Shown here: positions 5,303 to 42,509 of the stretch, piece after piece | Layout: every line of letters begins with the position of its first letter | Numbering within the stretch: position 1 is the first letter of the stretch | NCBI GenBank assembly: GCA_964422555.1 | Contig: CAYRBR010000004.1 | Coordinates: 1 to 47,315, forward strand | Direction of reading: 5' to 3' | Source of the DNA: an uncultured Caldisericota bacterium | GTDB taxonomy: Bacteria > Caldisericota > Caldisericia > UBA6126 | DNA: 47,315 bases | Notes under the pieces: generated by a model | Seen by the model: the letters and a program-made list of their open reading frames with translations, nothing else | Told to the model about the DNA's origin: nothing | Databases searched by the model: none | Position numbers and translations under genes: made by a program

Positions 5303-5346
5303 AAATAAAAGGTATTTTTTTGGACCAGTACCTAAAAGGAGGCATT

Positions 5347-8300: not shown

Positions 8301-8436
8301 TATGCCCGATTCTATGAAAGAAATGTTACCCTCTATTCTACCATCTGTTATGGATCGTGTAATGAAGAGTTTATTACCTCATGTTTCTAAAGGAATAGCC
8401 GTTGATTTTAAGGAATACTTACTTTCACAACCATAA
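5347..8436 (+). CDS. FAD-binding/4Fe-4S/CCG-domain oxidoreductase (GlcD + GlcF/GlpC-like fusion; possible alpha-hydroxy acid dehydrogenase)
   Basis: ATG 5347 after AAAGGAGG. FAD_binding_4-type PRGNATS and GGSG. Two ferredoxin motifs (CAQCGYCKLVC, CTTCKKCNYVC). CCG motifs (ESCCG, SCPGC, YHDPCH, LCCG, NCPCC). Met/Pro tail. Confidence 0.88.
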   Translation: MDSLPIEAREELIKQFGDHKFVNFQPTERIIYSHDMGALPQIIDKMINTVPKAVVRVRNKEDIAFLVSFSKRHKVPLTPRGNATSGYGDSMPFGNGIAVDFMSMRSILELDVNNLTVTTEPGIVFWLLERELNKSNVALRVYPSSAPGATVAGWIGEGGSGIGSYKYGYFRENVVSVEAILMNGETRIFTGKDLDLIYSSQGTTGLITKVTMKIRKKLPITPFAFHFKEPEEYQSFLIELAKHEASVYSINCFLGESLHRKFQALQDSQGIPFSIYHNQTNTSHFSIHDYEIDHQGVYAVIALENNLTGKQLKTVASEFHGTLQNNTLSTFLWDERFYPMREKRLGPSLIPSEAIVSVKELTNICLESKEKIPTLSMEGTLVNKDEIVLLGFVLHDERTFSFAVDFVKSLTLMSIIEKYGGRLYQVGVFFTDKAEQIKGKETLQKLRAFKTQTDPLNLLNPGKLFPSKEIPSLVKIAMKAGQSGQSLSAMVSNVLSRFPQLKKKDVNTIAHEAFACAQCGYCKLVCSEFFGNGWESSAPRGKFYFLREYFRGNQEFDDYLKDEFLLCTTCKKCNYVCQVNIPIQEKWDDMRGLLVHDKKMGTFPAFEMMGGSWEQALNIWTGRKNERSDWFPEPSKIDLSNPLNYWAGCTASYVETDIGINSIRILNEGNVSYQYLGNEESCCGIPFFMAGKWDTFEKVVRYNIDTFQKHNITQIVTSCPGCWVALNHYYRAWAKKLGIPYNIQVFHITELASKLIEEGKIKVNHLPGKITYHDPCHIGRHGKIYDEPRTILKNIAGNNYVEMEHNRDEGLCCGSVLTRIYKPDMSDRIADVRLCEAEDQEAEEMVTNCPCCEFQFRVAAKNLGKDIKVTDIATYLTRAMGLPESPDPNPMVYKMWNVFLAAITMMTPEGIREMMKDMFPSMIEAMPDTYKTMTESVLKMALPLRTPMANAFEKMLPMLMPRLLPDMLPKLAPEIQQIMEERMPDMPDSMKEMLPSILPSVMDRVMKSLLPHVSKGIAVDFKEYLLSQP

Positions 8437-18458: not shown

Positions 18459-18478
18459 ATGTTAGACTTGACTAATAT
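18459..18478. promoter_or_regulatory. DtxR/MntR-type operator 1, overlapping a -35 box
   Basis: ATGTTAG-ACTTGA-CTAATAT inverted repeat. Overlaps TTGACT (18468-18473), followed 16 nt later by TAGAAT (18490-18495). Confidence 0.7.
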
Positions 18479-18512
18479 TTTTATGTAATTAGAATATATT
18501 TAGGTGATTAAA

Positions 18513-18980
18513 ATGCTACAAAAACAAATATCAATTTCACAAGAAGATTATTTAGAAGCTATTTTGCGGATTTTTAATGAGAAAAAAGGTGTTCGAACAA
18601 AAGATATTGCTGCTAAACTAAACGTTCGCAATTCTTCGGTTACATCTGCTCTTAAACATCTAGCAAAAGAAGGTTTGGTTCACTACGAAAAGTATGGCAC
18701 CATTTCCCTAACTGATGAAGGGGAAGAAATTGCAAATAACATCTGGATTCGTCATCAAACAATGTACTTCTTCTTCCACGACATTTTAGAAATGTCAGAT
18801 ACAGAATCGAAGGCGATCGCTTGTGAAATGGAACATGCTATTACGGAAACAGCATTTACAAAATTTCTTCATTATTTGTATACAAATCACCCAAAAAAAT
18901 TAGAGAATTATATCGCAACTCACGAGATTAATTTGCAGTACCTCACTCACTTTTGCGAAGAGTGTGTAGAAAGGAAGTAG
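18513..18980 (+). CDS. DtxR/MntR family metal-dependent repressor
   Basis: EDYLEAI, HTH VRTKDIAAKLNV...SVTSALKHL, RH and ACEMEH metal ligands. ATG 18513 after AGGTG. Confidence 0.93.
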   Translation: MLQKQISISQEDYLEAILRIFNEKKGVRTKDIAAKLNVRNSSVTSALKHLAKEGLVHYEKYGTISLTDEGEEIANNIWIRHQTMYFFFHDILEMSDTESKAIACEMEHAITETAFTKFLHYLYTNHPKKLENYIATHEINLQYLTHFCEECVERK

Positions 18981-23402: not shown

Positions 23403-23927
23403 ATGCCTAATAATGAGACGGTTGTACACGTAACGCCACGAGCAAGCCATCATATCGGTTTCTTTAAGTCCAAACTTTGCTATCTCGTCTTCACAGATCA
23501 GCGGATTGTTGTTGTATATCATGATCCAAAGAAATTAAAAAAAGCTTATGAAGATGCAATCAAAGATCGTGAAAAAGATGGGAAAAAAGCAAATGTCTTT
23601 AAGAAATTAGGAGCAAAGTTTTCCTCTATGAATGATTTTCATACACGATATTTCGAATTGACACCTGAAGAAATGTTACTTGAAGATGACGACAACTTCG
23701 CAATTAAGCCATCGGACATACAACGTCTTGTTTTGAAAAAAGGATCAGTAGTGATGGATGAAGATGGGTATGAAACAAAAAATAAAGATACTCTTCAGAT
23801 GGTAATTTTTGGTAAGAAAATGAAGTTTAGTTTATCGATCGACCAATTTCAAAAAATCGCCAATGCTTTAGACCATATTATTCCAGAAGCCACTTATAAA
23901 AAGAACAAGGTTATCTTGAAAAGATAG
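23403..23927 (+). CDS. Hypothetical protein, possible PH-like fold (paralog 2)
   Basis: RBS AAGGAG, YLVFTDQRIVV motif, collinear with paralog 1. Confidence 0.75.
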   Translation: MPNNETVVHVTPRASHHIGFFKSKLCYLVFTDQRIVVVYHDPKKLKKAYEDAIKDREKDGKKANVFKKLGAKFSSMNDFHTRYFELTPEEMLLEDDDNFAIKPSDIQRLVLKKGSVVMDEDGYETKNKDTLQMVIFGKKMKFSLSIDQFQKIANALDHIIPEATYKKNKVILKR

Positions 23928-24707
23928 CTAGTACTCTTCTTCCAGTACAAGACAATCCTTATAATCGTAAATAAATAGTGTATCCCCAGCATTGTTCCAT
24001 ATCGGTTCATCAAATCCAGCATATAGATTAGTAGCTGTGTTCTTGCCGTTTCCTGTATGAACTTTTATACTCGATCCTGACTTCAGAACATAATCTGGAA
24101 AGAGATACCGATGATACGATTCATCGTAGAAATAAAAATTCTGCAAAAAGATAGTTTCACCGCTGTTATTTAACAATATAAACCATTCACCATTAACATT
24201 GTCATTGTCATTTCCCTCTGCATCGAATTGAAATGAAGTTACCGTCAAGTCGCCTGCATAGTCTGAGGGAGTAAACAAACCAACACCCTTTTGCATTGCC
24301 TTCTCTTCTGCTCGTTCGAGTATCGTTCTATAGCGTACATTAGGTGCTCTAAAAAAAGCTCTTGCTACCCCATTTTCAATTAAGATTTCATTCACAAATC
24401 CATCTTCTTTTGTGTATACATATGCAAGAGTTCTACCAAAAACATCTTCTTTTTCTTTATCGTATTCAAGGTACACTTCTTTCCCTTCCACTAGCTTTTT
24501 ATTCAGGTTTGTAGCTTCAGCAGAGTAGGGTTGTCCCTTTTCAGGAGTATTGATTCCAATGTATCGAACCTTTGTTCCATTCGCCAATACAATCGTATCA
24601 CCATCAATTACTTTGGAAACAAAATTTCCAGAATAATTACATGCAAATAGAAAACAAACAAAAAAAGAAGCAATAAGGAAAAAAGATATAGAATTTTTAA
24701 TTTTCAT
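23928..24707 (-). CDS. Thermonuclease (SNase) with C-terminal lamin-tail domain, probable lipoprotein
   Basis: VIDGDT, RYIGINTPE, DVFGRTLAYV. LTD motifs NGEWF and IWNNAGD. Lipobox-like LFAC. Confidence 0.92.
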   Translation of the reverse strand: MKIKNSISFFLIASFFVCFLFACNYSGNFVSKVIDGDTIVLANGTKVRYIGINTPEKGQPYSAEATNLNKKLVEGKEVYLEYDKEKEDVFGRTLAYVYTKEDGFVNEILIENGVARAFFRAPNVRYRTILERAEEKAMQKGVGLFTPSDYAGDLTVTSFQFDAEGNDNDNVNGEWFILLNNSGETIFLQNFYFYDESYHRYLFPDYVLKSGSSIKVHTGNGKNTATNLYAGFDEPIWNNAGDTLFIYDYKDCLVLEEEY

Positions 24708-26283
24708 TTTGTAATTCAGACAGAACGGACGAATAATAAGAAGGAAGTTTTTCGATTGAGCAAGCCCAGGGTGTTAACTGGCGTTCCATAAATTGTCCAG
24801 CCAAACTATGTAGGGAAACACCCAATATGCAAGCAGGATAAGGAGGGTATCCCTGGGCAATGAACCCAGCAATAGAACCAGCTAAAACATCACCACTTCC
24901 AGCTTTTGATAAGGCAGAAGAACGGAAATAGTTGATATGAGCAAAACCTGTTGGATCAGCTACAACAGTGGTTGAACTTTTAAGTACAACAATTGTTTGC
25001 CAAAGTTTGGAATAATGTAGAGCAACATCTACTAAATTCTGTTTTATTTGTTCAATTTGTAGTCCAGTAAGGTAACTCATCTCTCCTAGATGTGGAGTAA
25101 CAATTCTGGTTCCGGGTACTACTTTTTTTAATTGGGATTTGATCGCCCACAGGCCATCTGCATCAATTACCATCGTTTGCGATAAAGAATTATATAGAGA
25201 CTTACAAAAAGTAATTCGATCAATTTCTCTACTCATCCCTGATCCGATACACACAATCCCTTTCGGATGAATATGATGAAGGAAATATGTTATAGAATGG
25301 TGGGCATAGTGTGATTCTTTTGTAGGAATTCGCATGTGGATTGATTCAACAGGAACACGATTGGACAAGATACTTTCGTCGGTATCTTTATAACAGGCTA
25401 CTGTTAAACCAACACCAGAGTGAATTGCCCCCATTAGAGATAAAGACAAAGCTCCTTGATAATTTCTGCATCCAGCCACCGAATAAACTCTCCCAAACAT
25501 CCCTTTGTGCGAATCGACAGGTCTTGGTCTAACAATCTTGCCCACCTCTTTTGGTGTCATGAAGGTGGACAAATTCACCTTATCCTCTACAACCGTTCGA
25601 GGAACTCCTATATTTGTTACGTATAGTTTGCCTGTATAGTTTTTCCCCGGACATAGTAAATGCCCCACCTTTGGAGCCTCGAAGGTGACAGTATAGGTAG
25701 CTTTTATGGCTGAACTCCGAAATGTACTTACAACTTCTCCTGATTCTGAACTAATTCCCGAAGGTATGTCAATCGAATATATCGTTTTAGCTGAAGAATT
25801 TACAGTTTGAATTAATTCAGACACAAATCCCTCAATTGGCCTTGATAACCCAACACCAAAGATACCATCCACAACTATGGTAGTAGGATTTGCATTAAAG
25901 AACTCTTTTACTCTGACTCGGGTAACTTCCGAATCAAGGTAAGGATCTAAAATATCGACTTGAAAATCAGGATTTTTGTGAAAACTTTCCAAGATTTCAA
26001 AGTTATGTTTCGCTGCTCCCGATAACTTCTGGAGTGAAAAAACGGGCAACACCGCCACACGCCAACCATTAGAAATAAGATGCCGGGCAACAACACTGGC
26101 ATCGCCACCATTGTTACCCGGCCCTATCAATACTAGAACTTGTATGTTCCGCTTCTCATTTCGAACTATCTGGTCTACGACATTACTTCCTGCCATTTCC
26201 ATCAATTGCAGAGGTTTTACTCGATATTCTTCTTCCATCACTCTGTCAGTTCGATGGGTATCCTGACCAGTATGTACTAACAT
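24697..26283 (-). CDS. nnr: Bifunctional NAD(P)H-hydrate epimerase/dehydratase
   Basis: GPGNNGGD, VDGIFGVG, IDIPSG, SHKG, DADGL, TPHLGE, AGSGDVLAG. Confidence 0.93.
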   Translation of the reverse strand: MLVHTGQDTHRTDRVMEEEYRVKPLQLMEMAGSNVVDQIVRNEKRNIQVLVLIGPGNNGGDASVVARHLISNGWRVAVLPVFSLQKLSGAAKHNFEILESFHKNPDFQVDILDPYLDSEVTRVRVKEFFNANPTTIVVDGIFGVGLSRPIEGFVSELIQTVNSSAKTIYSIDIPSGISSESGEVVSTFRSSAIKATYTVTFEAPKVGHLLCPGKNYTGKLYVTNIGVPRTVVEDKVNLSTFMTPKEVGKIVRPRPVDSHKGMFGRVYSVAGCRNYQGALSLSLMGAIHSGVGLTVACYKDTDESILSNRVPVESIHMRIPTKESHYAHHSITYFLHHIHPKGIVCIGSGMSREIDRITFCKSLYNSLSQTMVIDADGLWAIKSQLKKVVPGTRIVTPHLGEMSYLTGLQIEQIKQNLVDVALHYSKLWQTIVVLKSSTTVVADPTGFAHINYFRSSALSKAGSGDVLAGSIAGFIAQGYPPYPACILGVSLHSLAGQFMERQLTPWACSIEKLPSYYSSVLSELQNEN

Positions 26284-26284
26284 G

Positions 26285-27220
26285 TTAACTCATAAGTAAC
26301 GCCATAATAGCCTTTTGTGCATGAAGTCTGTTTTCTGCTTCATCAAATACAGCTGCTTTGGGTCCATCCATTACAGAGTCTGTAATTTCATCCCCTCTAT
26401 GTGCAGGTAAACAGTGAAGAACTAAAGCTTCTTTTGGAGCTTTCGACAAAAGCTCGTCATTAACCTGATAGGGTGTAAAGATACGCTTTCTTTCTTCAGC
26501 TTCTTGCTCCTGACCCATAGAAGCCCAAACGTCAGTGTAAATAAAATCTGCTTTCGCAACAGCCTGAACAGGGTCAGATATGATTTCCAATGATGCACCT
26601 GTCAAAGGTGAATCTTCTTCCCACCACTCCATAATTTGTTTAGATGGAGTAAAATTCTGAGGTGAGCAGATGGTAATATCTACACCTGTTTTAGCAGCAG
26701 CCATCATAAGCGAGTTAGATACATTATTACTATCGCCAATGTATGTAAGGTGAAGACCTTTTAAGAATCCTCTTTTTTCATACATGGTAAAGAAATCAGC
26801 AACTGCTTGACATGGATGTAAAAAATCAGAAAGACCATTAATTACAGGGCAAGTGGAATATTCGGCTAACTGTAAAATGGTATCATGTGAAAACACTCGC
26901 GCCATAATACCATCTAAATATCTACTAAGTACTCGGGCAGTATCAGGAATGGTTTCACCACGTCCTAGTTGAATATCCTTACTGCTTAAGAAAATTGCTT
27001 TTCCACCCATCTGATTCATACCAATTTCAAAAGAAACTCGAGTACGAGTAGAAGATTTTTCAAAAATCATTCCAAGATTTTTATTTTCTAAAACTGGTTT
27101 TCTTTGGTTTGTCTGTTCTTCCAATTTCAACATTTTTGTTAAATCAAAAATGCGTTGCACATCTTCTACAGAATAATCATGGATAGAAACAAAGTTTTTT
27201 CCCTGATATAAGCCGGGCAT
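26285..27220 (-). CDS. argF: Ornithine carbamoyltransferase
   Basis: STRTR, HPCQ, DVWASMG, HCLP, EAENR. Confidence 0.96.
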   Translation of the reverse strand: MPGLYQGKNFVSIHDYSVEDVQRIFDLTKMLKLEEQTNQRKPVLENKNLGMIFEKSSTRTRVSFEIGMNQMGGKAIFLSSKDIQLGRGETIPDTARVLSRYLDGIMARVFSHDTILQLAEYSTCPVINGLSDFLHPCQAVADFFTMYEKRGFLKGLHLTYIGDSNNVSNSLMMAAAKTGVDITICSPQNFTPSKQIMEWWEEDSPLTGASLEIISDPVQAVAKADFIYTDVWASMGQEQEAEERKRIFTPYQVNDELLSKAPKEALVLHCLPAHRGDEITDSVMDGPKAAVFDEAENRLHAQKAIMALLMS

Positions 27221-27230
27221 AATATACTCC

Positions 27231-28544
27231 TTACTTACCGAATTTTTCTTTTAAGAGATCTTCAAGAGTTGGTTTTCCAATTTCCTGAAGTTCATATCCA
27301 ATTCGTACTGCAGGTTTTTTAATGTTGATAATACGGCTTAGGTCGATTGGAGTTCCAATAACAACAACATCACAGTCGGCAGAGTTAATGGTTTCTTCTA
27401 ATTCTTGAAGTTGTTTTTCATAATAACCTAAAGCAGGTACAATTTCATCTAATTGTGGATATTTTTCATAGGCTTCTTTAATAGATCCAACAGCATAAGG
27501 TTTTGGATCTACAATTTCAGCACCACATTTTCTGGCAGCTAAATAGCCAGCACCGATGTCCATTTCGCCATGTGTTAAGGTAGGACCATCTTCAATTACT
27601 AAAGCTCGTTTTCCTAAAATCATTTTTGGATCAGCAATAGTTAATGGAGAAGTTGCATCAATAATGACTGCATTTGGATTGATTGCTCTACAATTATCAC
27701 GAACATCATTAACATCTTCTAAATTTGCTGTTTCTTCTTTGTTAATGATAATGCAATCGGCTTGTCTTACGTTTACTTCACCTGGGTAATAAGAAATTTC
27801 ATCATACGGACGAGTTGGGTCTACAATGGTAATTTTATAATCAGATTTGTAGAATGGGAAATCGTTGTTTCCACCGTCCCATAAAATGATGTCAGCTTCT
27901 TTTTCAGCTTCACGAAGAATAGCTTCGTAATCTACTCCAGCGAATATAACTGCACCCATAGCAATATATGGTTCGTATTCTTCCATTTCTTCAATGGTAC
28001 ATTCATGCTTTTTCAAATCTTCCAAGGTCGCAAAACGTTGAACAGCTTGTTTTGCTAAATCGCCATAAGGCATCGGGTGACGGATAGCAGCAACTTTTTT
28101 ACCCATTTTGTTAAAGATTCTTACTACTTCACGGCTGGTTTGGGATTTTCCACAACCAGTTCTTACAGCACAGACAGAAAGTAAAGGTTTGGTGGATTTG
28201 ACAGTTGTGTTATTGTAACCCATTAACCAGAAATCTGCTCCAGCAGCATTTACTAAGGCGGATTTATTCATAACAACCTGATAGGGTTGGTCAGAATAAG
28301 CGAAAACTACAACATCAATGTTCTTATCTTTGATTAAAGTTGGGAGATCCTCTTCCGGAACAATAGAAATACCTTGAGGATAAAGATGACCTGATAATTC
28401 TGATGGATATTTTCGATCATCGATTTCAGGAATCTGTGTGGCAGTAAAAGCTACTACATTGTAGTCTTCATTGTCACGGAAAAATACGTTAAAATTGTGG
28501 AAATCTCTTCCAGCAGCACCCATAATAACAACATTACGTTTCAT
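27231..28544 (-). CDS. arcE: Arginine synthetase ArcE-type P-loop protein (family often annotated as GTPase or cyclic 2,3-diphosphoglycerate synthase)
   Basis: GAAGRDFHNFN, AFTATQIP, P-loop AVRTGCGKSQT, RHPMPYG, WDGGNND, EDGPTLTHG. Adjacent to ornithine carbamoyltransferase. Confidence 0.8.
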   Translation of the reverse strand: MKRNVVIMGAAGRDFHNFNVFFRDNEDYNVVAFTATQIPEIDDRKYPSELSGHLYPQGISIVPEEDLPTLIKDKNIDVVVFAYSDQPYQVVMNKSALVNAAGADFWLMGYNNTTVKSTKPLLSVCAVRTGCGKSQTSREVVRIFNKMGKKVAAIRHPMPYGDLAKQAVQRFATLEDLKKHECTIEEMEEYEPYIAMGAVIFAGVDYEAILREAEKEADIILWDGGNNDFPFYKSDYKITIVDPTRPYDEISYYPGEVNVRQADCIIINKEETANLEDVNDVRDNCRAINPNAVIIDATSPLTIADPKMILGKRALVIEDGPTLTHGEMDIGAGYLAARKCGAEIVDPKPYAVGSIKEAYEKYPQLDEIVPALGYYEKQLQELEETINSADCDVVVIGTPIDLSRIINIKKPAVRIGYELQEIGKPTLEDLLKEKFGK

Positions 28545-28546
28545 AA

Positions 28547-28852
28547 CTACCTCCCGATGGATAAAATTTTAATCTCAGAATAACGTTGACGATGTCCTCT
28601 TCTTTTGTGTTCATTGGTTTTATTGCGATAGAAAAAAACAGAAATCTTCTTTGCTTTCTCATCGCTCCTTAAAACACTTGCCTGCACCTTGTAGTTGCTG
28701 GCATCTTCTCCAGTAACTACGTTATCTCCACCTACCATTAAAGGAGTGAAGCTTATTTCATTACCTTTTTCTTCATTCAGTTTTTCTATTCTGACAATCT
28801 GTCCTTCTTCGACTTTATACTGTTTTCCGCCTGTTTCAATTACTGCGTACAT
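28547..28852 (-). CDS. rplU: 50S ribosomal protein L21
   Basis: MYAVIETGGKQYKV and RRGHRQ. ATG 28852 after GGAGGA. Confidence 0.96.
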   Translation of the reverse strand: MYAVIETGGKQYKVEEGQIVRIEKLNEEKGNEISFTPLMVGGDNVVTGEDASNYKVQASVLRSDEKAKKISVFFYRNKTNEHKRRGHRQRYSEIKILSIGR

Positions 28853-28899
28853 AGTATCCTCCAAAAACATATTTCGATATTACAAATATCCAAATTGCT

Positions 28900-28927: not shown

Positions 28928-29019
28928 GGCATATTTCGTCATTTTCATAACAAAGCAGTTAATAGTAATTTTTCAATTTTTTGTTCTATACTACTATACA
29001 AAAAATAGGAGAAAAATAT

Positions 29020-29403
29020 ATGAAAACTTGCTTACAAACTTCAAAAGCACCAGCAGCTATTGGTCCTTACTCACAAGCAGTGCGGTGTGGGTCTTTTGTG
29101 TACATATCAGGGCAGATTGCACTAGATCCTTTAACTGGATTATATAATCCACAAAGTGCTGCAGAAGAAACGAAAATCGCTCTGCGTAATATGCAGGCCA
29201 TTCTCACCGAAGCAAACTGTACCTTTAGTAACGTTGTGAAAACGACTATTTATTTATCAAACATGAAGGACTTCGGTGATGTAAATGAGGTGTATTCCGA
29301 GTGTTTTCCTTCCAATCCTCCAGCAAGAGCTTGCGTGGCAGTAAAAACGCTACCCAAAAATTGCAAAGTGGAGATAGAGGCAATAGCTTATATAGAAGAA
29401 TAG
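29020..29403 (+). CDS. ridA: RidA family enamine/imine deaminase
   Basis: APAAIGPYSQA, SGQI, VVKTTIYL, PPARACV, VEIEAIA. ATG 29020 after AGGAG. Confidence 0.93.
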   Translation: MKTCLQTSKAPAAIGPYSQAVRCGSFVYISGQIALDPLTGLYNPQSAAEETKIALRNMQAILTEANCTFSNVVKTTIYLSNMKDFGDVNEVYSECFPSNPPARACVAVKTLPKNCKVEIEAIAYIEE

Positions 29404-29410
29404 GCAAACA

Positions 29411-29854
29411 CTAGTCTGAATAAAATTCTGGAACAACATTATCTTTTGACTGTTGAATCCGAATCATTATTCGATTAGGAGCACAAGTCACTGTTTCTCC
29501 AACAGAAGATACCCATCCCGATTTAACACAGGTTTGATTCGGGCAAGAAGATTCTTTAAAACGGACCCTGTTACCCTTTACTTCAATTACAACCTTTCCA
29601 ACAGCACCCTCTTCAACAATAACTTGGTCTTCCGATAAACGAAAAAAACGATTTTCATTCGAGTGAGCATTAATTACGTTTATATATAAATTTTCTTCGG
29701 TGGTAGAAGTTTGAAATAATCCTGGATTTAAATGTAGATAGAATAGAAAGCCAAAAAATAAAATTGCAAAAAACAAAACAAATAGTCCGGGATTTATTCC
29801 TTTTTTTGCATCTTTTTTGTTTATTTTCTTTTTTGAATAATTTTTGTGGCCCAT
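29411..29854 (-). CDS. NusG domain II (DUF1312-like) membrane-anchored protein
   Basis: One TM helix, then SSCPNQTCVKSGW...TCAPNR. Likely start ATG 29854. Confidence 0.8.
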   Translation of the reverse strand: MGHKNYSKKKINKKDAKKGINPGLFVLFFAILFFGFLFYLHLNPGLFQTSTTEENLYINVINAHSNENRFFRLSEDQVIVEEGAVGKVVIEVKGNRVRFKESSCPNQTCVKSGWVSSVGETVTCAPNRIMIRIQQSKDNVVPEFYSD

Positions 29855-31735: not shown

Positions 31736-33565
31736 CTAGGCATACATAACAAGAAACATCACAAACACAAGCAATGAAACAATAGCTGCGATACCAATTA
31801 TAATTTTCCCCCATTTTGTAACCACAAAGCTGTAAACATAAGCATTTTTCTGATCTTCTTTGTCAGTTTTTGTAACAAGCACAAGAAGTTCTTTTTTAAT
31901 AAATACCCACATCTTGTCAATATTTCTTTCAATCACATCTGTTTTTTTTTCAATCCAATCCGAAATAGTTCTTTTTCCAGGAATTAATTTATTACCAGCT
32001 CGATCAATCACACAATCCAATCCATTGCATTCGTTTGTGATACACTTGCATCGATCAGGTGCAAACCCGGGCCAGTATTTGTCAATTCTCTGGCAGGAAA
32101 CAAACCAGGGGCTAACAAAAAATGTAATGATCCTGTTATTAAGGGTAAAAATCAAAGTCTCCAACTTCATTAAATACTTGCTTAGAAAATGATTCCACTG
32201 CCCATACACCACAAACCACCAGCAAAGAGGTGTCCATTCGTATGGAATTACAATGTGAAACCATCCCTTTTTTATTCCAACCGCAATCAACACAACTCCT
32301 GCAACAAGAATCCACAAAAAAGAAATAGCTGAATGACTAAAAGCATGATGACCTATCTGAAAACTCTCTAACAGATGCACTGAAGTGGCTTCTTTTGGGA
32401 GAAATGTTTCGTACAGTAATGGGAAACAACCAAAGACAAGAATGAGGATTGCTAGTATTCCTAATGGAATAATCTCACGCCAGTCAAAACGTAATTGATA
32501 TTTCTTTTGCATAGATCTGAAAGAGGTTAGATAGAACATTTTAAAATTCGATGCAAAAGTACCTACTGCTGTCAAGAGAAAAATAGCTTCCATAAAAATG
32601 AAAGCAATGGAACAGTGCTCAACAAGAGTTTCATGCAATGCGTTTTTAGAAACAAAACCATTTGTAAACGGGACACCTGAAATCCCCATTACTGCCACCA
32701 GAAATAGAATTGCCACCAACCACTTCTTTTTCAATAAACCTCGAATAGAATACATATCCAAAGTACTAAAATAAACAACCATTACACCCGCAGCAATAAA
32801 GAGGGCAGACTTAAACCAGGCATGATTCACTGCATGCAATATAGAACCCATTAATGCATCTTGTTGCTGGAAAGCGATAAATAGTGCTAATCCCATTAGA
32901 ATATATCCCATCTGAGAAACACTATGATACGCCAACATTCGCTTCATGTTTGATTGAGTTAGTGCTTGTAAAACACCATAAAACATAGTAATAGCAGCAA
33001 TGACTAGCAAAATAATACCATATATACTAGGTAATTGCACCAGTAAAACCGTTTGTAAAAGTCCAAAAAAACCGATTTTTATAATGCATCCAGATAGAAT
33101 AGCAGAAGCGGGAGATGGGGCTACAGGATGAGCTTCCGGTAACCATATATGAAATGGATATCCACCTGCTTTAATCAAAAAACCCACACCCATTAGAGTT
33201 GCTCCTAAAATGGGGTTATACGCTAGTTGAGCAAACATTACTCCGGCCAGCACCAGAACTCCACTTAAAAGAGAAAAGAAGAAGTACAATTTTGCAGCTC
33301 TATACGAAGATTTTATACGCTCCTGCAAAATTAATGGAAAACTCACCAAAGATACAATTTCATATACCACAAATAAAGTAAACAGGTTGGAAGAAAAGAA
33401 TAAGAGTACATTCCCAGCAAAAGTAAGACAAAAGAAAATGTAAAACTCTCTTTTTCTAGCATGTACATATTTAAAGGCAAACAGCAAAGAAGCAACATAA
33501 GGAGGAATCGTAAGGAGCAGAAATATAAAAGTATAAGAAGTAAAAGAAAACGATATTGGTAGCAT
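31736..33565 (-). CDS. Complex I/Mrp antiporter-like membrane subunit (HyfB/MrpD type) with C-terminal extension
   Basis: YE, IKAG, HIWLPEAHP, IKIG, KRMLAYHSVSQMG, NHAWFKS, GFVSK. Confidence 0.88.
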   Translation of the reverse strand: MLPISFSFTSYTFIFLLLTIPPYVASLLFAFKYVHARKREFYIFFCLTFAGNVLLFFSSNLFTLFVVYEIVSLVSFPLILQERIKSSYRAAKLYFFFSLLSGVLVLAGVMFAQLAYNPILGATLMGVGFLIKAGGYPFHIWLPEAHPVAPSPASAILSGCIIKIGFFGLLQTVLLVQLPSIYGIILLVIAAITMFYGVLQALTQSNMKRMLAYHSVSQMGYILMGLALFIAFQQQDALMGSILHAVNHAWFKSALFIAAGVMVVYFSTLDMYSIRGLLKKKWLVAILFLVAVMGISGVPFTNGFVSKNALHETLVEHCSIAFIFMEAIFLLTAVGTFASNFKMFYLTSFRSMQKKYQLRFDWREIIPLGILAILILVFGCFPLLYETFLPKEATSVHLLESFQIGHHAFSHSAISFLWILVAGVVLIAVGIKKGWFHIVIPYEWTPLCWWFVVYGQWNHFLSKYLMKLETLIFTLNNRIITFFVSPWFVSCQRIDKYWPGFAPDRCKCITNECNGLDCVIDRAGNKLIPGKRTISDWIEKKTDVIERNIDKMWVFIKKELLVLVTKTDKEDQKNAYVYSFVVTKWGKIIIGIAAIVSLLVFVMFLVMYA

Positions 33566-35082
33566 TAGAAAAGGTGTGGGCAAGATCCAATAGGAATAAG
33601 TGTGGAAATTATATCACGACAAAATGCTAAAATAGGATCTGGGACGATACCAAACGCAAGAATGATTAGAGAAAGAGCAATCATAGTTATAGAAACGGTA
33701 ATAGGAGTTTTATATCGTTTTATGTCAGTCGCACCCTCTTCCACTTCTTGTGGTTCTTGAAACCATCCCTGAATAATAATAGGAAGATAATACAAGGCAT
33801 TTAGAATACTACTGAAAAGAAGAATCCCTATGGCAATTCCACCAATCCATGGCTGAATATATCCAAGCTGTATAGCCTCAATAGCTCCTACACCTAATGC
33901 CCACTTGGTAATAAAATTGGCAAAAAGAGGGAATCCTATCATTGATAAAGCTCCAATTGTGAATCCTGCAAAGACGATAGGCGATTTACGACCAAATCCT
34001 GCATACTTTGTTACATCGGATGTATCAGACTGTTGAATCATAGTTCCTGCAGACATAAATAGTAAAGATTTAACCATTGAATGAGCAAGAGCGTGAAGAA
34101 TAGCACCCAACAATCCTATGGGAGATAGTAACATTGCTCCCATAGTTATATAGCCCATTTGACTAACACTCGAGTAGGCAAGCATGCGTTTTATGTGTTT
34201 TTGTCCAATTGCAATAGCCGAACCCCAAAACATAGTAAACACAGCAATAAACAAAAGAATGATTACAGAAGTGTTCCCAATTAGGTTACAGACACCAAAG
34301 GTTTCCAGAACCATTCGAAGGATTCCTATTACTCCTGCTTTAATGACCATTCCCGACAACAATGCTGAAGCAGGTGATGGAGCTACTGGATGAGCTTCTG
34401 GTAACCATATATGAACTGGGAACAAACCAGCTTTGATTGCAAAAGCAATGATAAACCCCCAGAAAATAACAGGAAAAAAGACAGAAGAAGTAAGAGTTGC
34501 ATACCCACCTGGCACAAAAGAAGTAGTACCAATCACTGAGTATTGCACCATAATAGCCATTAAAAAGAAAAGCCCACCGATGATCTGAAAAAACACATAT
34601 CGAAGACCCGCAGCATACGTTTCAGGTTTCTGATAATGGATTATCAAGACATATGATACAACAAGCAACAATTCAAAGAAAATAAAAAAAGTAACCCAAT
34701 TGTCTGCATTAAAAATAAGCATAATGCAATACAGATTGAGCATTGAAAAAGTTTGGTACCGTTGTATGTTCTTGCTTTTTTCTTGGGGAAAATAGTGAAT
34801 GGAATAAAGAGAAGAAAATAACCAAACCAACAGCAGAAAAAAGGAAGTAATCCAGGCAAATTTGTCAAGGTTAAAGGATAGATGAAAGGGACCATGATTT
34901 GCCAGGGTAATAATTGGACTTGTAGTTGTTGCTTGTGGATAAAGAAATAGAAGAATAATAAAAAGTATGGCAACAAAAACAAATGTTACTGATCCATATA
35001 ATGAAGGTTTGTGCTTTTTAATTGCAAGCAATACAGCAACAAATAGAATTGGACATGTTAGCCAAATAGTATATAGTTCCAT
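33565..35082 (-). CDS. Complex I/Mrp antiporter-like membrane subunit (MrpD type)
   Basis: FE, IKAG, HIWLPEAHP, VIKAG, KRMLAYSSVSQMG, AHSMVKS, FITKW. ATG 35082 after AAGGGGTG. Confidence 0.9.
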   Translation of the reverse strand: MELYTIWLTCPILFVAVLLAIKKHKPSLYGSVTFVFVAILFIILLFLYPQATTTSPIITLANHGPFHLSFNLDKFAWITSFFLLLVWLFSSLYSIHYFPQEKSKNIQRYQTFSMLNLYCIMLIFNADNWVTFFIFFELLLVVSYVLIIHYQKPETYAAGLRYVFFQIIGGLFFLMAIMVQYSVIGTTSFVPGGYATLTSSVFFPVIFWGFIIAFAIKAGLFPVHIWLPEAHPVAPSPASALLSGMVIKAGVIGILRMVLETFGVCNLIGNTSVIILLFIAVFTMFWGSAIAIGQKHIKRMLAYSSVSQMGYITMGAMLLSPIGLLGAILHALAHSMVKSLLFMSAGTMIQQSDTSDVTKYAGFGRKSPIVFAGFTIGALSMIGFPLFANFITKWALGVGAIEAIQLGYIQPWIGGIAIGILLFSSILNALYYLPIIIQGWFQEPQEVEEGATDIKRYKTPITVSITMIALSLIILAFGIVPDPILAFCRDIISTLIPIGSCPHLF

Positions 35083-35199
35083 AAAACACCCCTTACACCT
35101 TGATAGCAATTCTATTATAGTGAGACATTCTTACAAAAAAAGAAAAAAAAGAAAATTTTCATTATACTATTTGTAATTTACTGACAATTGGAGGGTATT

Positions 35200-35433
35200 A
35201 TGGTTTCTAAAGGTTATGTTTTATTAGAAGCACAGGCAGGTAAAACTGAAGAAGCATTAAACAAAATCAGACAAATTAAAGGCGTAAAAGAAGTTGACTT
35301 GGTAACAGGTCCATATGATTTAATCATCAATATAGAAGCCGATGACCTGAAGCAACTCGGACAAATTGTCAGCGATGAAATTCAGGTCATCGGCGGAGTG
35401 ACAAAAACAATTACTTGTGTTGTTATCGGCTAA
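35200..35433 (+). CDS. Stand-alone Lrp/AsnC ligand-binding (RAM) domain protein
   Basis: VTGPYDLII, GVTKTIT, no HTH. ATG 35200 after GGAGGG. Confidence 0.85.
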   Translation: MVSKGYVLLEAQAGKTEEALNKIRQIKGVKEVDLVTGPYDLIINIEADDLKQLGQIVSDEIQVIGGVTKTITCVVIG

Positions 35434-36020
35434 TGAAACGCTTTCACACCTTCATCAAAGGCTCGTAAATTTAGCTCAACAAAACGAGGTTTTACGAGTT
35501 CTTTGATGGATTTTTTCAGTTCTTCTTCAGAAAATGGACAGGAAGGAATCTGAGAGAAGGAACCTAGAATTACCATGTTCAAGGAAATGATTCCACCAGC
35601 TTCAACAGCAGCTTTTGATGCATCTGTTGCAACAATATTATCACTAATTCTATGCAATTCTTCTGTAATCCTATCAAACTCAGGATAGGTTGCTAGCCCA
35701 GTGTTAACAGAAGTTGGAATCAACGGATGACTATTTAAAACAATGTAGGCATCTTTTTTCAAATAATTCATATATCGTAAGCTTTCGACCGGTTCAAATG
35801 CCAACATGCAATCGCCATGTCCTTCGGGAGTTAAAGCACCAAAGACTTCAGTTCCCATTCGAACATGTGAGATTACTGTCCCACCTCTTTGAGACATGCC
35901 GTGCGTTTCTCCAACACGAACATTGATTGAGTTTCGAATAGCAGTTTGAGCAATAATTTTGGAGGCTAGAACAGTTCCTTGTCCACCAACACCACACATT
36001 ACAATGTTAAATTCTTTCAT
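35430..36020 (-). CDS. iorB: Indolepyruvate:ferredoxin oxidoreductase beta subunit
   Basis: GVGGQG, ETHGMSQRGGTV, NMVILG. Confidence 0.93.
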   Translation of the reverse strand: MKEFNIVMCGVGGQGTVLASKIIAQTAIRNSINVRVGETHGMSQRGGTVISHVRMGTEVFGALTPEGHGDCMLAFEPVESLRYMNYLKKDAYIVLNSHPLIPTSVNTGLATYPEFDRITEELHRISDNIVATDASKAAVEAGGIISLNMVILGSFSQIPSCPFSEEELKKSIKELVKPRFVELNLRAFDEGVKAFH

Positions 36021-37862
36021 TTATTGCTCCTTTCCTTCGTGTATTGCACCAACTGGACATACTTCTGTGCAAGCATTACAGCCATTGCATAAATTCAAAT
36101 CAACAATAGGATGCTTCAAATTTTCTTCCCATATTAAAGCAGGACAAGAAAACTTTGAAGTACAAATTTTACAACCGATACAAACATCTGGATCAATTGT
36201 AACAGGAAGTTTCTTTTCATACCCTTTCAGCATACAGCAAGGAGCACGTGAAACGATAAAAGTAGGTCCTTCATCATAGGCTGCTGCTTCTTTGAAAACT
36301 TCAATTGATTCTTTAATTTTAAGAGGGTCAATAACTCGAATAAACTTAACACCCAAAGCTTTTGCTACTTTCTCAGGATAGATTGGAGCATCGTGTTCTC
36401 CAAACACTGAGTTCAAACCACAGCTTGGATTTGGTTGTTGTCCGGTCATAGCAGTAATAGAATTATCCACCAAAACGATATTTACATTGGACTTGTTCCA
36501 AACTGCATTCACTAAAGCGGGAATACCAGTATGGAAAAAAGTAGAATCACCAATAGTTGCAAAAATGCTCTCTTTGTTAAAATGTGCCAATGCAGCTCCA
36601 ACTCCAATTGAACCGCCCATACATACACAAGTATCAACAGCATTTAATGGTGGTTGAATACCCAAGGTGTAACACCCAATATCACTGGGATATATTCCCT
36701 TAGGATCCGCTTTTTTAATGGCATAAAATGTAGATCTATGAGGACATCCAGGGCATAAAACCGGGAATCGGGGTGGCATAAGAGAAGTATCTGGTAAAGA
36801 AACACCTTCGCATGCAACAGTAGGTTCTTTCTTGATTGCTTTCATGATTGCATCATGAACGATACCGGTATTAAACTCATATGTCTTTGGTAAGATGTCT
36901 TTGCCATGAATTTTGATTTGGACTCCATTGTCGAAAGCAAGTCGTTTCAGAGTCTCTTCAGTAATAGGATCCAACTCTTCAACAACTAATATAGTGTCGC
37001 AATGCTGAAGCATCTTTAACATCGTTTTTTCAGGTAAGGGATATGTGATTCCAAGATGTAAGAAACTTACATCTTCTAAGTTTTCATAGTACAGGGCTTC
37101 TTTGACATAGTTTCCTGTCAGACCGTTTGCAATAATCCCAAATTTCCCTTTTAAAGATAGGCGAGTCCACGGAGAATCACAAATATAATCTTTTAATTCA
37201 TCAAATCGCTGAATTAAATCAGGATGTAATTGGTAGGCATGAGAGGGAAGAACAGCTTTATGAAGCTTATCTTTCACAAAGTTTACTTCGTTACGTGTTT
37301 CAGGAATTGAGTTATACTCAACGTTACCGGAACAATGAGCACTACGAGTTGTTTGTCGTAACAATACTGGTAATCTGAATTTTTCAGAAAGCTCAAATCC
37401 ATATTTTACCATATCTTTTGTTTCTTGTGGAGAAGAAGGCTCTAAACAAGGAAACATACCAAAACGACAATAGTTTCGACTATCTTGTTCGTTTTGTGAT
37501 GAAAAACAGGATGGATCATCTCCAACGGCTAAAATTAATCCAGCAACAGATCCACCGTATGTCATTGACATTAAAGCATCTGCTGCAACATTGATTCCAA
37601 CATGTTTCATTGCAACAATTGATCTGTGATTAGACCAACTACCTGCAAGAGCTGTTTCAAATGCTACTTTCTCATTAGTGGAATACTCCCAATAATATGA
37701 ATTTGCAGCAACAGCAAATTTGGCAAACGTATCTCCAATTTCGGAAGCTGGAGTACCAGGATACGTACATGCAACTCCAACTCCTGCTTCTAAAGCACCT
37801 CGAACTACTGCCTGGTTACCCATTAACAGTTCTACTATTCCGGGTTTGTTATCTAATAGCAT
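36021..37862 (-). CDS. iorA: Indolepyruvate:ferredoxin oxidoreductase alpha subunit
   Basis: YPGTPASE, NEKVA, MKHVG, LCPGCPHR, DIGCY, TPP motif GDST...DN, two C-terminal 4Fe-4S motifs. Confidence 0.96.
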   Translation of the reverse strand: MLLDNKPGIVELLMGNQAVVRGALEAGVGVACTYPGTPASEIGDTFAKFAVAANSYYWEYSTNEKVAFETALAGSWSNHRSIVAMKHVGINVAADALMSMTYGGSVAGLILAVGDDPSCFSSQNEQDSRNYCRFGMFPCLEPSSPQETKDMVKYGFELSEKFRLPVLLRQTTRSAHCSGNVEYNSIPETRNEVNFVKDKLHKAVLPSHAYQLHPDLIQRFDELKDYICDSPWTRLSLKGKFGIIANGLTGNYVKEALYYENLEDVSFLHLGITYPLPEKTMLKMLQHCDTILVVEELDPITEETLKRLAFDNGVQIKIHGKDILPKTYEFNTGIVHDAIMKAIKKEPTVACEGVSLPDTSLMPPRFPVLCPGCPHRSTFYAIKKADPKGIYPSDIGCYTLGIQPPLNAVDTCVCMGGSIGVGAALAHFNKESIFATIGDSTFFHTGIPALVNAVWNKSNVNIVLVDNSITAMTGQQPNPSCGLNSVFGEHDAPIYPEKVAKALGVKFIRVIDPLKIKESIEVFKEAAAYDEGPTFIVSRAPCCMLKGYEKKLPVTIDPDVCIGCKICTSKFSCPALIWEENLKHPIVDLNLCNGCNACTEVCPVGAIHEGKEQ

Positions 37863-39352: not shown

Positions 39353-41593
39353 ATGAAACGTAACATAACAATACTGTTACTTGCCCTTATCTTTGTTGGA
39401 TCGTCTATCGTATCAGCATTTGGAGAAGAATGGTATGCTTTTCAAAAAGACGAATCAAGATCGGGTATGGTAAAGGAAACCTTGTACTTCCCAATGAAAA
39501 ACCAAATGCAGTTATCTGTTGGAGAAACTATTTCAGGTGGATTACTCGTACACAACAACTGTGTATATTACTCAACCCTTGAAGGAACTGTGGGATGCAC
39601 TTCCATTTTCTCTGGGGAAACACAATGGAAACAATCTCTTAGTGGTCCCATTAAAAGCAGCATGATGATTAGCAATCGAGATTTGTTTGCCATTACCGAA
39701 AAAGGGCATGTCTATTGCATGGATGCACAAACAGGGACAATCCTATGGAATCGCAACTTAGACACTGAAGTAGAAGCTCCATTGTTGAAATTCTATCGTT
39801 ATCTTATTGTTCCTTGCATGAATGGACAAGTTTACTCTCTTAATGGATTGGATGGGAAAACAATTTGGAACATTGATCTTCATGAACCCATACGAAATGG
39901 CGTCTGCCTAAAATTTAATTCATTATATATTGTTACAGAACGTGGTCAGATAGGTTGCTATGATAGCCAAAATGGAAAGAAGTATTGGAGTTTCTACGCA
40001 CCATCTGCCTCTCATAGTGCTCCAATAGCTGGCACAGAATGCATATATTATGGAGACGATCAGGGTCATTTCTATGCTTACGACTATATCACTGGCAGAA
40101 AATACTGGACAAAAGAGTTTAATTCTCCCTTTTCAAGCCCTATGAGTTTCTGCTACTTTGATAAGCGTATTGTCTGTACAGGTATCACAGATCGTTATAG
40201 TGGAATCAGTGTTGGAACCGGAGCTGAATTGTGGTCTTATAAAAGTAGCTCTTGTACCATTGCTCCAGTTGCAGCAAATAGAGTTGTATTTATCCCTGGA
40301 TCGAATAACACCATTGTAGCTATTGATTCTTTTGATGGTACAGAAATCTATAAAGAACAGTTAGATAGTCCTATTAGTGCTGGCATGGCAATATCAAATG
40401 GTCGTTTGTTTATTGGAACTGAAGATGGTACCATACATATTTTTGGTTCTGCTGATTACGACTTCTATATAGAACTTGATGAAGAAATCAAAACGATATC
40501 TCCTGGTGAAAGTTGCAGTTTTAAAATTAAAGTAGTTAGTAAAGAAGGGTTCCATGATCCCGTATCTTTTTCAGCCGGTGGTTTTCCCTGTTCCTGTAAA
40601 GGAGTAGGAAGATATTTCGATCATTCACAGGTCAAACCCCCTGGAGAAATAAACTTAATTGTTGATACAACTACAGAAGCAAAACCAGCTAAATATCGAA
40701 TTACAATTAAAGCATTTTCTGGCAAACGTGATATTGAACGTGAAGCTTATGGTATCCTCATCATTCAGGAAAAGGGGAAAGAAACGATTCTTTCTATGGA
40801 AACTCCTGAAACTGTAAAAGATGGACAGGAATTTAAGGTTCCCATTCATATTCAGAATGCAGATCAGCTTCGATCCATTGGATACACTATTCAGTATCCC
40901 TCTGAACATCTTCTTTTAAAAGAAGTTCAAAAAGGAGATTTCTTTCTTGGACCAGAAGATAACATATTCTTTAATTCTACTAACAATCCATCCAATGGGA
41001 AGGTATCCATAAATTACTCTCGAAAAGAATTAGGAGAAAGTGGAAGCGGATATCTTGCCTATTTAGTATTTCAAGCCATCAAACCTACAAAAGAAAAAGA
41101 ATCGATATCGCTGACGTTCACGAATGTTTCCTTACGAGATACTCTTCTATTTTCGAAAGCAGCCGTTTTTGAACCAGCTTCTCTTCAAATTGAGAAAGGG
41201 AAACAGGTAAAAATCTTGCTGCAGATTGGATCAAAAACTGTCAAGATTAACAATCGAACAGAGCAACTTTCGGCTGCACCTTACATTAAAGACGGACGTA
41301 CCCTTGTCCCCTTACGAGTTTTAGCTGAGAACATGAATACAACTGTCGAATGGATAGCTGATGAACAAAAAATAGTTCTTTCCCAGTACGATAAAACAAT
41401 TGTTTTATGGATTCAAAAACCAATTTGTGAAGTAAATGGCGTTCCCACAGACCTACCAAACAAGGTAGCTCCCGAAATCAAAAACGGAAGAACCTTTATT
41501 CCCCTTCGGTTTGTAGCTGAGCAGCTAAATGGTTCCATTCAATGGGATGGTACCACACAAACAATAACAATATTATATCCAAATTACGATTAA
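39353..41593 (+). CDS. Secreted PQQ-repeat beta-propeller + Ig-like + cohesin-like + copper amine oxidase N-terminal (stalk) domain protein
   Basis: Signal peptide, repeated G...W Trp-docking motifs, FKVPIHI...IQYP...GSGYLAYLVF (cohesin-like), GRTLVPLR and GRTFIPLRFVAE (stalk). Confidence 0.88.
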   Translation: MKRNITILLLALIFVGSSIVSAFGEEWYAFQKDESRSGMVKETLYFPMKNQMQLSVGETISGGLLVHNNCVYYSTLEGTVGCTSIFSGETQWKQSLSGPIKSSMMISNRDLFAITEKGHVYCMDAQTGTILWNRNLDTEVEAPLLKFYRYLIVPCMNGQVYSLNGLDGKTIWNIDLHEPIRNGVCLKFNSLYIVTERGQIGCYDSQNGKKYWSFYAPSASHSAPIAGTECIYYGDDQGHFYAYDYITGRKYWTKEFNSPFSSPMSFCYFDKRIVCTGITDRYSGISVGTGAELWSYKSSSCTIAPVAANRVVFIPGSNNTIVAIDSFDGTEIYKEQLDSPISAGMAISNGRLFIGTEDGTIHIFGSADYDFYIELDEEIKTISPGESCSFKIKVVSKEGFHDPVSFSAGGFPCSCKGVGRYFDHSQVKPPGEINLIVDTTTEAKPAKYRITIKAFSGKRDIEREAYGILIIQEKGKETILSMETPETVKDGQEFKVPIHIQNADQLRSIGYTIQYPSEHLLLKEVQKGDFFLGPEDNIFFNSTNNPSNGKVSINYSRKELGESGSGYLAYLVFQAIKPTKEKESISLTFTNVSLRDTLLFSKAAVFEPASLQIEKGKQVKILLQIGSKTVKINNRTEQLSAAPYIKDGRTLVPLRVLAENMNTTVEWIADEQKIVLSQYDKTIVLWIQKPICEVNGVPTDLPNKVAPEIKNGRTFIPLRFVAEQLNGSIQWDGTTQTITILYPNYD

Positions 41594-41609: not shown

Positions 41610-42509
41610 ATGTCGAAATTAATGGAATGTGTTCCCAATATCTCAGAAGGACGAGATTCCAAAATTGTGGAAGCCTGTGTTAATGAAGTACGCAATATTC
41701 AGGGAGTAAAACTCATTGATTATTCTTCAGATCCCGATCATAACCGTTCTGTCATTACATTTGTAGGAACGGCCGAACCAGTTAAGGAAGCTGCTTTTGC
41801 TCTCACAAAAAAAGCTATGGAATTAATCGATTTAAACCATCACAGTGGTACCCACAAAAGAATGGGTGCTGTTGATGTAATCCCTTTTATTCCTCTTGGA
41901 AATTCAACTATGGAGGATTGCATTAAAGCCAGTGAAGAAGTAGCGGAAAGAATTGGAACTGAACTCTCCATCCCTGTCTATTTATATGCTAATTCTGCAA
42001 AAAGAAAACACTGCAAAAAACTACCTACAATTCGCAAGGGTGAATTCGAAGGTTTCAAAGATAAAATTGCATTGGAAAAATGGTGTCCCGATTTTGGGCC
42101 TTCTACCCGGCACGATACATTTGGCTGTGTAGCAGTAGGAGCTCGTGAGTTTTTAATTGCATACAATATTTATTTAAACACTACTGATAAAAAAGTTGCT
42201 TCAACTATTGCAAAATCACTTCGAGAAAGTGGTGGTGGACACAAGCACTTGCAAGCAATGGGAATGTACATCGATGAAAAAGCCTTGGTTCAAGTATCAA
42301 TGAATATTCTGGATTTCAACAAATTACCTCTTTATCGAGTAGTTGAGTTAATACGGATAGAAGCCCGAAAATGGGGATGTGACATTAAAGAAACTGAACT
42401 GATTGGTCTTATTCCATTGCAAGCAATTCTTGACACCTTCTCCTACTACACACAGCTTCCTTCACTCACCCCAGAACAAGTTATCGAGATGAAGATTCAC
42501 GAAGAATAA
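41610..42509 (+). CDS. ftcD: Glutamate formimidoyltransferase
   Basis: ECVPNISEGR, DPDHNRSV, HKRMGAVDVIPF, GAREFLIAYN, QVSMN. Confidence 0.93.
   Translation: MSKLMECVPNISEGRDSKIVEACVNEVRNIQGVKLIDYSSDPDHNRSVITFVGTAEPVKEAAFALTKKAMELIDLNHHSGTHKRMGAVDVIPFIPLGNSTMEDCIKASEEVAERIGTELSIPVYLYANSAKRKHCKKLPTIRKGEFEGFKDKIALEKWCPDFGPSTRHDTFGCVAVGAREFLIAYNIYLNTTDKKVASTIAKSLRESGGGHKHLQAMGMYIDEKALVQVSMNILDFNKLPLYRVVELIRIEARKWGCDIKETELIGLIPLQAILDTFSYYTQLPSLTPEQVIEMKIHEE

Follow-up and report, generated by a model that had tools for sequence, protein, structure and literature searches.

The question raised by this locus is whether an uncultured bacterium interconverts arginine and citrulline by means of an ATP-forming arginine synthetase (ArcE) that is encoded next to ornithine carbamoyltransferase (OTC). 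The DNA analysed, referred to here as the window, is a stretch of 47,315 nt from an uncultured Caldisericota bacterium (GenBank assembly GCA_964422555.1, contig CAYRBR010000004.1), in which an open reading frame (ORF) for a P-loop protein of 437 amino acids lies directly upstream of an ORF for a protein of 311 amino acids. The locus is very probably best explained as a whole by a 437-amino-acid protein that is the ArcE orthologue of a Caldisericia bacterium, that is co-transcribed with OTC, and whose substitutions are ordinary lineage variation.

The textbook view of how arginine and citrulline are interconverted was changed by ArcE as late as 2024, with the description of TK2200 from Thermococcus kodakarensis, an enzyme specific for L-arginine and free ammonia that prefers ADP (PMC11032458), and whose traits include a tetrameric assembly and a sigmoidal dependence on ADP. 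According to the same study, arcE homologues are widespread in bacteria, with Caldisericum and Caldithrix among those named, and some of them adjoin arcB and/or arcC; a biosynthetic role in some bacteria was also raised (PMC11032458). The gene pair of the window and the motifs of the putative ArcE are located as follows.

27231..28544, minus strand: arcE, homologue of arginine synthetase / ATP-forming arginine deiminase, 437 amino acids (homology and family hidden Markov model)
26285..27220, minus strand: argF/arcB, OTC, 311 amino acids (TIGR00658, NF001986 and OTC motifs)
27221..27230, minus strand: arcE-argF spacer of 10 nt, GGAGTATATT, which holds the argF ribosome-binding site
28488-28520, minus strand: GAAGRDFHNFN, ArcE residues 9-19
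28137..28169, minus strand: AVRTGCGKSQT, Walker A motif or P-loop, ArcE residues 126-136, with T129, G130, G132 and K133 invariant in the 71-sequence alignment A3
27975..27998, minus strand: TIEEMEEY, ArcE residues 183-190, with T183, E185, E186 and E188 invariant and M187 in place of the commoner R
27861..27881, minus strand: WDGGNND, Walker-B-like strand end, ArcE residues 222-228, with D223, G224, G225, N226, N227 and D228 invariant
27798..27821, minus strand: DPTRPYDE, ArcE residues 242-249, with D242 and R245 conserved and T244, Y247 and D248 as lineage variants

Comparison of the window protein with its homologues in Thermococcus sp. 21S9 and M39, T. litoralis, Pyrococcus furiosus and P. 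horikoshii revealed 64-66.5% identity end to end (residues 2-433, about 600 bits), and its length is of the same class as that of TK2200 and the other ArcE proteins of Thermococcales (437 versus 448-457 amino acids). The identity was 67% with the proteins of Caldisericum exile and Caldithrix abyssi and only 45-50% with the homologues of Thermoproteota (Hyperthermus, Pyrodictium, Ignisphaera); the Thermococcales and all the other genera compared are listed as ArcE holders (PMC11032458). When scored with a family hidden Markov model built from 222 non-redundant members, from which the window's own clade was left out, the protein reached 760 bits, the median of the members being 742. The residues that are invariant in the family were all kept, namely the P-loop GxGKS, RHPMPYG, TxEExEE, WDGGNND, D242 and R245, PGE, NK and DGPTxTHG. 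In a midpoint-rooted neighbour-joining tree, the protein fell within a Caldisericia clade, which belongs to a shallow core clade that also holds the Thermococcales, while the Thermoproteota were placed farther out. No match of the protein to a Pfam family was found at E<=1e-3, and its close homologues number more than 8000, with the source names "predicted GTPase" or "cyclic 2,3-diphosphoglycerate synthase"; the ArcE assignment would correct these widespread annotations.

The ORF of 311 amino acids is a canonical OTC. It scored 418.5 bits with TIGR00658 (cut-off 280.85) and 436.6 bits with NF001986 (cut-off 306), matched both Pfam OTCace_N and OTCace, and contains the motifs STRTR57, HPCQ135, DVWASMG230 and HCLP269. 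The models of putrescine, N-acetylornithine and aspartate carbamoyltransferases scored lower or below cut-off, the putrescine model being among those below. The ribosome-binding site of argF (AAGGAG) overlaps the arcE stop codon.

Among all window ORFs of at least 100 amino acids, Pfam scans detected no carbamate kinase, arginine deiminase, ArgG, ArgH or carbamoyl phosphate synthetase (CPS), and a tblastn search of the window with a verified carbamate kinase gave no match. Most of what the original prediction had proposed for this locus was thus borne out: the ArcE identity and the argF call by the scores given above, the motifs and the spacer of exactly 10 nt by their positions, the mis-annotation of the family by the two names that its homologues carry, and the lack of carbamate kinase, arginine deiminase and argG/argH genes by the Pfam scans. 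Its emphasis on an ArcE "in a bacterium" holds as far as the host is bacterial and fails as a claim of novelty, bacterial ArcE, that of Caldisericum included, having already been reported in 2024 (PMC11032458). The locus is an uncharacterised member of a known family in a known context, and no new enzyme, pathway or specificity is claimed for it. Its interest is that of a clean, highly constrained and expressed bacterial orthologue that has its OTC alongside and comes from a little-studied phylum found in anoxic sediments and oil reservoirs. For a first biochemical assay of an ArcE from a bacterium that is not hyperthermophilic, it would be a reasonable choice.

As a separate observation, the ArcE of Thermococcales shares about 65% identity with the bacterial core clade and nests among bacterial and mixed archaeal lineages in the tree. 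This placement suggests a transfer of arcE between domains that involved the characterised (Thermococcales) branch.

Conservation, constraint and transcription of the gene pair

The window has a GC content of about 36%, and its sequence recurs in marine-sediment and oil-field metagenomes; the host is a Caldisericia bacterium of anoxic sediment or oil-field habitats. The pair is flanked on the same strand by two further genes.

28547..28870, minus strand: rplU, for ribosomal protein L21, at the head of the operon and 2 nt upstream of arcE (Pfam Ribosomal_L21p, TIGR00061)
24697..26283, minus strand: nnr, encoding a bifunctional NAD(P)H-hydrate epimerase/dehydratase, separated from argF by 1 nt (YjeF_N and Carb_kinase domains)

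A relative among the matches listed was the Caldisericia bacterium isolate AnMBR.bin291 (L061), a GTDB species representative, with 93% identity in ArcE, 89% in OTC and the same gene arrangement. Relatives at 74-75% ArcE identity, among which the cluster at 74% includes another Caldisericia metagenome-assembled genome (MAG), have the whole neighbourhood in common with the window (iorAB, mrp, ksgA, ispE, NusG_II, RidA, rplU, arcE, argF and nnr), and the order rplU-arcE-argF-nnr was kept in Caldisericia relatives from 74 to 93% ArcE identity. The adjacency of arcE and the OTC gene itself was found in relatives at 93, 75, 74 and 67% ArcE identity, the last being a C. exile MAG in which the pair lies in a wholly different neighbourhood. 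Among 80 diverse GTDB arcE loci, taken among the matches listed in a scan of genome contigs, the OTC gene was located directly downstream of arcE on the same strand in 10. The largest neighbour families within 4 kb of arcE at these loci, verified at the equivalog level (NCBIfam), were those of carbamate kinase, present at 14-15 loci, of OTC at 13, of ornithine-oxo-acid transaminase at 6 and of the arginine-ornithine antiporter at 2-4.

Comparison with the 93% relative gave dN (nonsynonymous divergence) values of 0.061 for arcE, 0.077 for argF, 0.123 for rplU and 0.45 for nnr, with dS (synonymous divergence) above 2 and thus saturated. With the lowest dN of the four, arcE shows the tightest constraint in the operon, and it is under strong purifying selection; between the same two genomes the DNA identity over 24697-28870 is only about 76%, yet that of ArcE is 93%. 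The arcE-argF pairing is therefore meaningful and not due to chance, because it is kept in the C. exile MAG at another place, recurs in 10 of the 80 loci, is accompanied in the family by arginine-gene neighbours, and is under strong constraint.

Contigs from two marine-sediment metatranscriptomes, matching the window at 95% or more, cover rplU, arcE and argF together with three junctions: rplU-arcE is bridged by the contig at 28529-28845, arcE-argF by that at 27129-27464, and argF-nnr by that at 26119-26322. The flanks at 23800-26090 and 28957-29500 were left uncovered by metatranscriptome contigs, while one DNA run covers everything. This distribution over genes and junctions, with none on the flanks, points to transcription of rplU-arcE-argF in situ as one unit, against which it has to be set that the RNA contigs are assembled and unstranded and may include DNA carry-over. 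The nnr gene belongs to the same transcription unit, the operon rplU-arcE-argF-nnr, and probably has an unrelated function. A scan for promoters and terminators between 23.5 and 29.5 kb gave counts no higher than the shuffled expectation, and for this reason no operon boundaries are claimed from it.

Two further features of the contig data were recorded. A stretch of 34 nt at 27970-28003, which encodes part of the TIEE.EEY motif, showed a sharp depth spike of 49-97x versus about 5x in metatranscriptome and metagenome contigs; the contigs of this spike carry several different flanks, and the arcE genes of other organisms in the community share the stretch as a conserved nucleotide sequence. At position 26257, in the 5' part of nnr, both metatranscriptome runs have A while the window and the DNA run have G, the simplest reading of which is strain variation between samples.

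The gene order behind rplU was also particular in that arcE follows after 2 nt, where rpmA (L27) is usual, and the L27 signature motif was detected nowhere in the 47-kb window. What is particular to this locus is modest: the pair stands behind rplU in a window that lacks an L27 gene, and its ArcE carries the G247Y substitution specific to the clade.

Proposed reaction and direction of flux

By analogy with TK2200, from which its chemistry is deduced, the window ArcE would catalyse the reversible reaction L-arginine + ADP + Pi <-> L-citrulline + NH3 + ATP. Together with OTC it would perform the opening two steps within the "arginine synthetase pathway", where arginine is converted to citrulline with formation of ATP, and citrulline to ornithine and carbamoyl phosphate. 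In the direction of synthesis, ATP would phosphorylate the ureido oxygen of citrulline and ammonia would then displace the phosphate, the reverse taking place in the direction of breakdown. This sequence of phosphorylation and ammonia attack is probable from the P-loop kinase fold and the analogy with amidoligases; CTP synthetase (N-terminal domain) and dethiobiotin synthetase likewise activate a carbonyl or ureido oxygen with ATP before nitrogen attack, although they share with ArcE a distant fold likeness only and no sequence relationship.

The proposed route follows the same logic as the arginine deiminase pathway arcABC(D), with OTC (arcB) downstream, and many other arcE loci also have arcC, arcD and ornithine aminotransferase genes. 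It differs from that pathway in its first step, where a P-loop enzyme that forms ATP takes the place of the hydrolytic arginine deiminase with its amidinotransferase fold, so that the ArcE route gives one extra ATP per arginine and its first step is reversible. As in the Thermococcales, the window ArcE is partnered with OTC and has LpxK and CpgS as predicted fold relatives. The host, in contrast to T. kodakarensis, is a mesophilic or moderately thermophilic bacterium and not a hyperthermophilic archaeon, and its arcE, unlike that of Thermococcales, lies within a ribosomal-protein operon directly upstream of the OTC gene with no carbamate kinase nearby.

Arginine breakdown is moderately favoured as the physiological direction; a literature search on arginine metabolism in Caldisericia led to the ArcE paper alone. 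The products of breakdown would be ATP, ornithine as a precursor of polyamines or proline, and carbamoyl phosphate, the last of which would feed pyrimidine synthesis or a carbamate kinase whose gene lies elsewhere. This direction is preferred because the family neighbours are catabolic (arcC, arcD, rocD), because the iorAB and formiminotransferase genes of the window and the large secreted proteases of relatives fit an amino-acid fermenter, because ArcE and ArcB of T. kodakarensis supply carbamoyl phosphate for pyrimidines, and ornithine (PMC13260591), and because the decarboxylase of C. exile for polyamine synthesis is specific for ornithine, which this species hence needs.

Several points weigh against the reading of the locus as an ArcE orthologue engaged in arginine breakdown. 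In the literature searched no assayed bacterial ArcE was found, the enzyme of T. kodakarensis being the only one assayed, and the identity to the assayed TK2200 itself is deduced through orthologues of the same order (Thermococcales). Residue Y247 replaces the glycine of about 84% of the family members, two residues from the invariant R245. Seed searches of the 47-kb window and of the Caldisericia loci did not find arcC, arcD or rocD. Moreover, with K about 10 the reaction lies close to equilibrium, so that the adjacency of OTC fits arginine synthesis equally well.

Arginine synthesis is the foremost alternative, though a clearly less probable one: from ornithine and carbamoyl phosphate OTC would make citrulline, to which ArcE would add free ammonia at the cost of one ATP, replacing argininosuccinate synthetase and lyase. 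In T. kodakarensis the reaction, which is reversible, supported the formation of arginine in vivo (PMC11032458), and bacteria with ArcB, ArcE, CPS and ornithine synthesis that lack ArgG/ArgH were named as candidates for this role (PMC11032458). In the window there is no argG/argH, nor any arcC near the pair, and the place behind a ribosomal protein gene suggests growth-coupled expression. Against this, Caldisericum is absent from the biosynthetic candidates named in the paper, in a list that is introduced by "such as" and is not exhaustive (PMC11032458); the neighbours of arcE across the family are catabolic genes; the Ks of the enzyme for ammonia is in the millimolar range; and the window suggests a fermenter of peptides and amino acids.

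Since the pair stands directly behind rplU with no carbamate kinase nearby, it may also be viewed, more tentatively still, as a growth-coupled housekeeping module, either as the sole source of carbamoyl phosphate and ornithine in a CPS-less cell that imports arginine, as in T. kodakarensis (PMC13260591), or as the sole step of arginine biosynthesis that replaces ArgG/ArgH. In either form this would, if true, be the first bacterial case.

Lineage variants and related folds

The original prediction had given TIEEREEY and DPHRPGHE as the usual wording of two motifs, and had suggested from TIEEMEEY and DPTRPYDE that the window ArcE may have an altered specificity. The usual wording was given accurately, in that R187 is present in about 81% of the members and DPHRPGHE is the exact wording in Thermococcus and Pyrococcus. 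Relative to the Thermococcales, the window copy carries R187M, H244T, G247Y and H248D, and NKEE in place of NKID. Residue counts were made on 229 family members, non-redundant at 80%. At position 187, 186 of the 229 have R and 31 have M; position 244 is L in 105, H in 65, M in 27 and T in 16; position 247 is G in 193 and Y in 7; and position 248 is H in 149, D in 21, L in 17 and Q in 11. In the same motifs, T183, E185, E186, E188, D242 and R245 are invariant in the family and kept in the window ArcE.

With conservation measured on members outside its own clade, the window ArcE deviates at none of the 52 positions in the class of at least 95%, at 1 of the 87 in that of at least 90% and at 10 of the 147 in that of at least 80%, the family medians being 0, 1 and 8; the single deviation in the second class is a V-to-L change. 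Residue Y247 is confined to the Caldisericia clade, where it occurs in all members (63-93% identity), with M187 in all but one, and in each of those whose gene context was read (the window, L061 and L002-L008) OTC is adjacent. Homologues with M187 adjoin arcC (L044) or arcC, arcB and rocD (L074, with Cys at 247), and those with D248 or N248 adjoin arcB or arcB and arcC (L064, L058).

A specificity variant, in which M187, Y247 and D248 adapt the pocket to a different nucleotide or to a guanidino or ureido compound other than the usual substrate, is very improbable on these data. Y247 is indeed rare and close to the invariant D242 and R245, and the NK motif reads NKEE where the Thermococcales have NKID, but all four positions vary across the family, the deviation counts are near the family median, positions 270-271 are highly variable family-wide, M187 and D/N248 occur in homologues beside arcB and/or arcC, and the carriers of Y247 keep OTC. 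The suggestion of altered specificity was therefore rejected, with all 52 positions of the most conserved class and 86 of the 87 in the next retained. The window ArcE is a typical family member in which nothing points to another substrate, and M187, T244, Y247 and D248 are best read as ordinary lineage variation.

The AlphaFold model of the ArcE monomer was obtained with a pLDDT (predicted local distance difference test) of 92.6 and a pTM (predicted template modelling score) of 0.90. Its nearest structure was CpgS, the cyclic 2,3-diphosphoglycerate (cDPG) synthetase (Foldseek E 1e-18), at 15-16% identity, followed by LpxK 4EHX/4EHY (E 5e-8 to 2e-7, template modelling score normalised to the target up to 0.66); LpxK 4EHY is also the structural match given for TK2200 by the ArcE authors (PMC11032458). 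CTP synthetase and dethiobiotin synthetase were weak structural neighbours. ArcE and CpgS (PDB 8ORK/8ORU, 9SXB) have in common an N-terminal domain, an LpxK-like P-loop kinase domain and an ATP/ADP-dependent phosphoryl transfer, and WDGGNND of ArcE aligns to the Walker B region of CpgS. They differ in substrate and gene context as well as in sequence, CpgS being confined to hyperthermophilic methanogens.

The solved CpgS chains matched the window ArcE with 36 bits (E 2.8e-8) over residues 211-322 only, and the family profile A3 with 42-58 bits over about 110 residues only, while the HypB model TIGR00073 scored 23.3 bits on ArcE (cut-off 121.2) over 63 residues only. The identities as a cDPG synthetase or as a CobW/HypB-type GTPase metallochaperone, for which the homologue names "cyclic 2,3-diphosphoglycerate synthase", "predicted GTPase" and "CobW/HypB/UreG domain", the weak local matches and CpgS as the nearest solved fold might speak, were rejected on bit scores and gene context and are effectively refuted, because solved CpgS reaches only 36-58 bits against about 600 bits at full length for the ArcE orthologues, HypB scores far below its cut-off, cDPG is reported only from hyperthermophilic methanogens (PMC10690619), and the family neighbours are arginine-pathway genes and not those of 2-phosphoglycerate kinase or of hydrogenase or urease maturation. 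A grouping with CpgS, which the original prediction had named as its refutation, was thus not what was found, ArcE being placed in the core clade with the Thermococcales.

Other features of the window

The window gave no match in Rfam and tRNA scans. Genes for an iorAB-like indolepyruvate/2-oxoacid:ferredoxin oxidoreductase (35430-37862, minus strand), two Mrp/Nuo antiporter-type membrane subunits (31736-35109, minus strand) and glutamate formiminotransferase (41610-42509, plus strand) form a set typical of an anaerobic amino-acid fermenter. The gene for a predicted lipoprotein with staphylococcal-nuclease and lamin-tail domains (23928-24707, minus strand) shares 11 nt with the end of nnr, and the relatives at 74-75% ArcE identity lack it at this position.

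Two large secreted or surface proteins have a copper-amine-oxidase-N-like tail. The first (39353-41593, plus strand) has 746 amino acids, with the tail joined to a PQQ-type beta-propeller and a cohesin domain, while the second (44704-47315, plus strand) has more than 870 amino acids and continues past the window end. Because similar tails are found on NHL and Big_6 proteins of relatives, the tail may be a cell-surface anchoring module of this lineage.

A fusion protein of 1038 amino acids (5320-8436, plus strand) joins FAD-binding_4, a 4Fe-4S dicluster and two CCG cysteine-rich domains, resembling GlcD/GlpC or heterodisulfide reductase, and its gene adjoins that of a CGGC-domain protein. At 18474-18514, an AT-rich tandem repeat of 19 nt in 2.2 copies lies over the start of the gene for a DtxR-family regulator that precedes feoA-feoB, and this repeat may be an operator.

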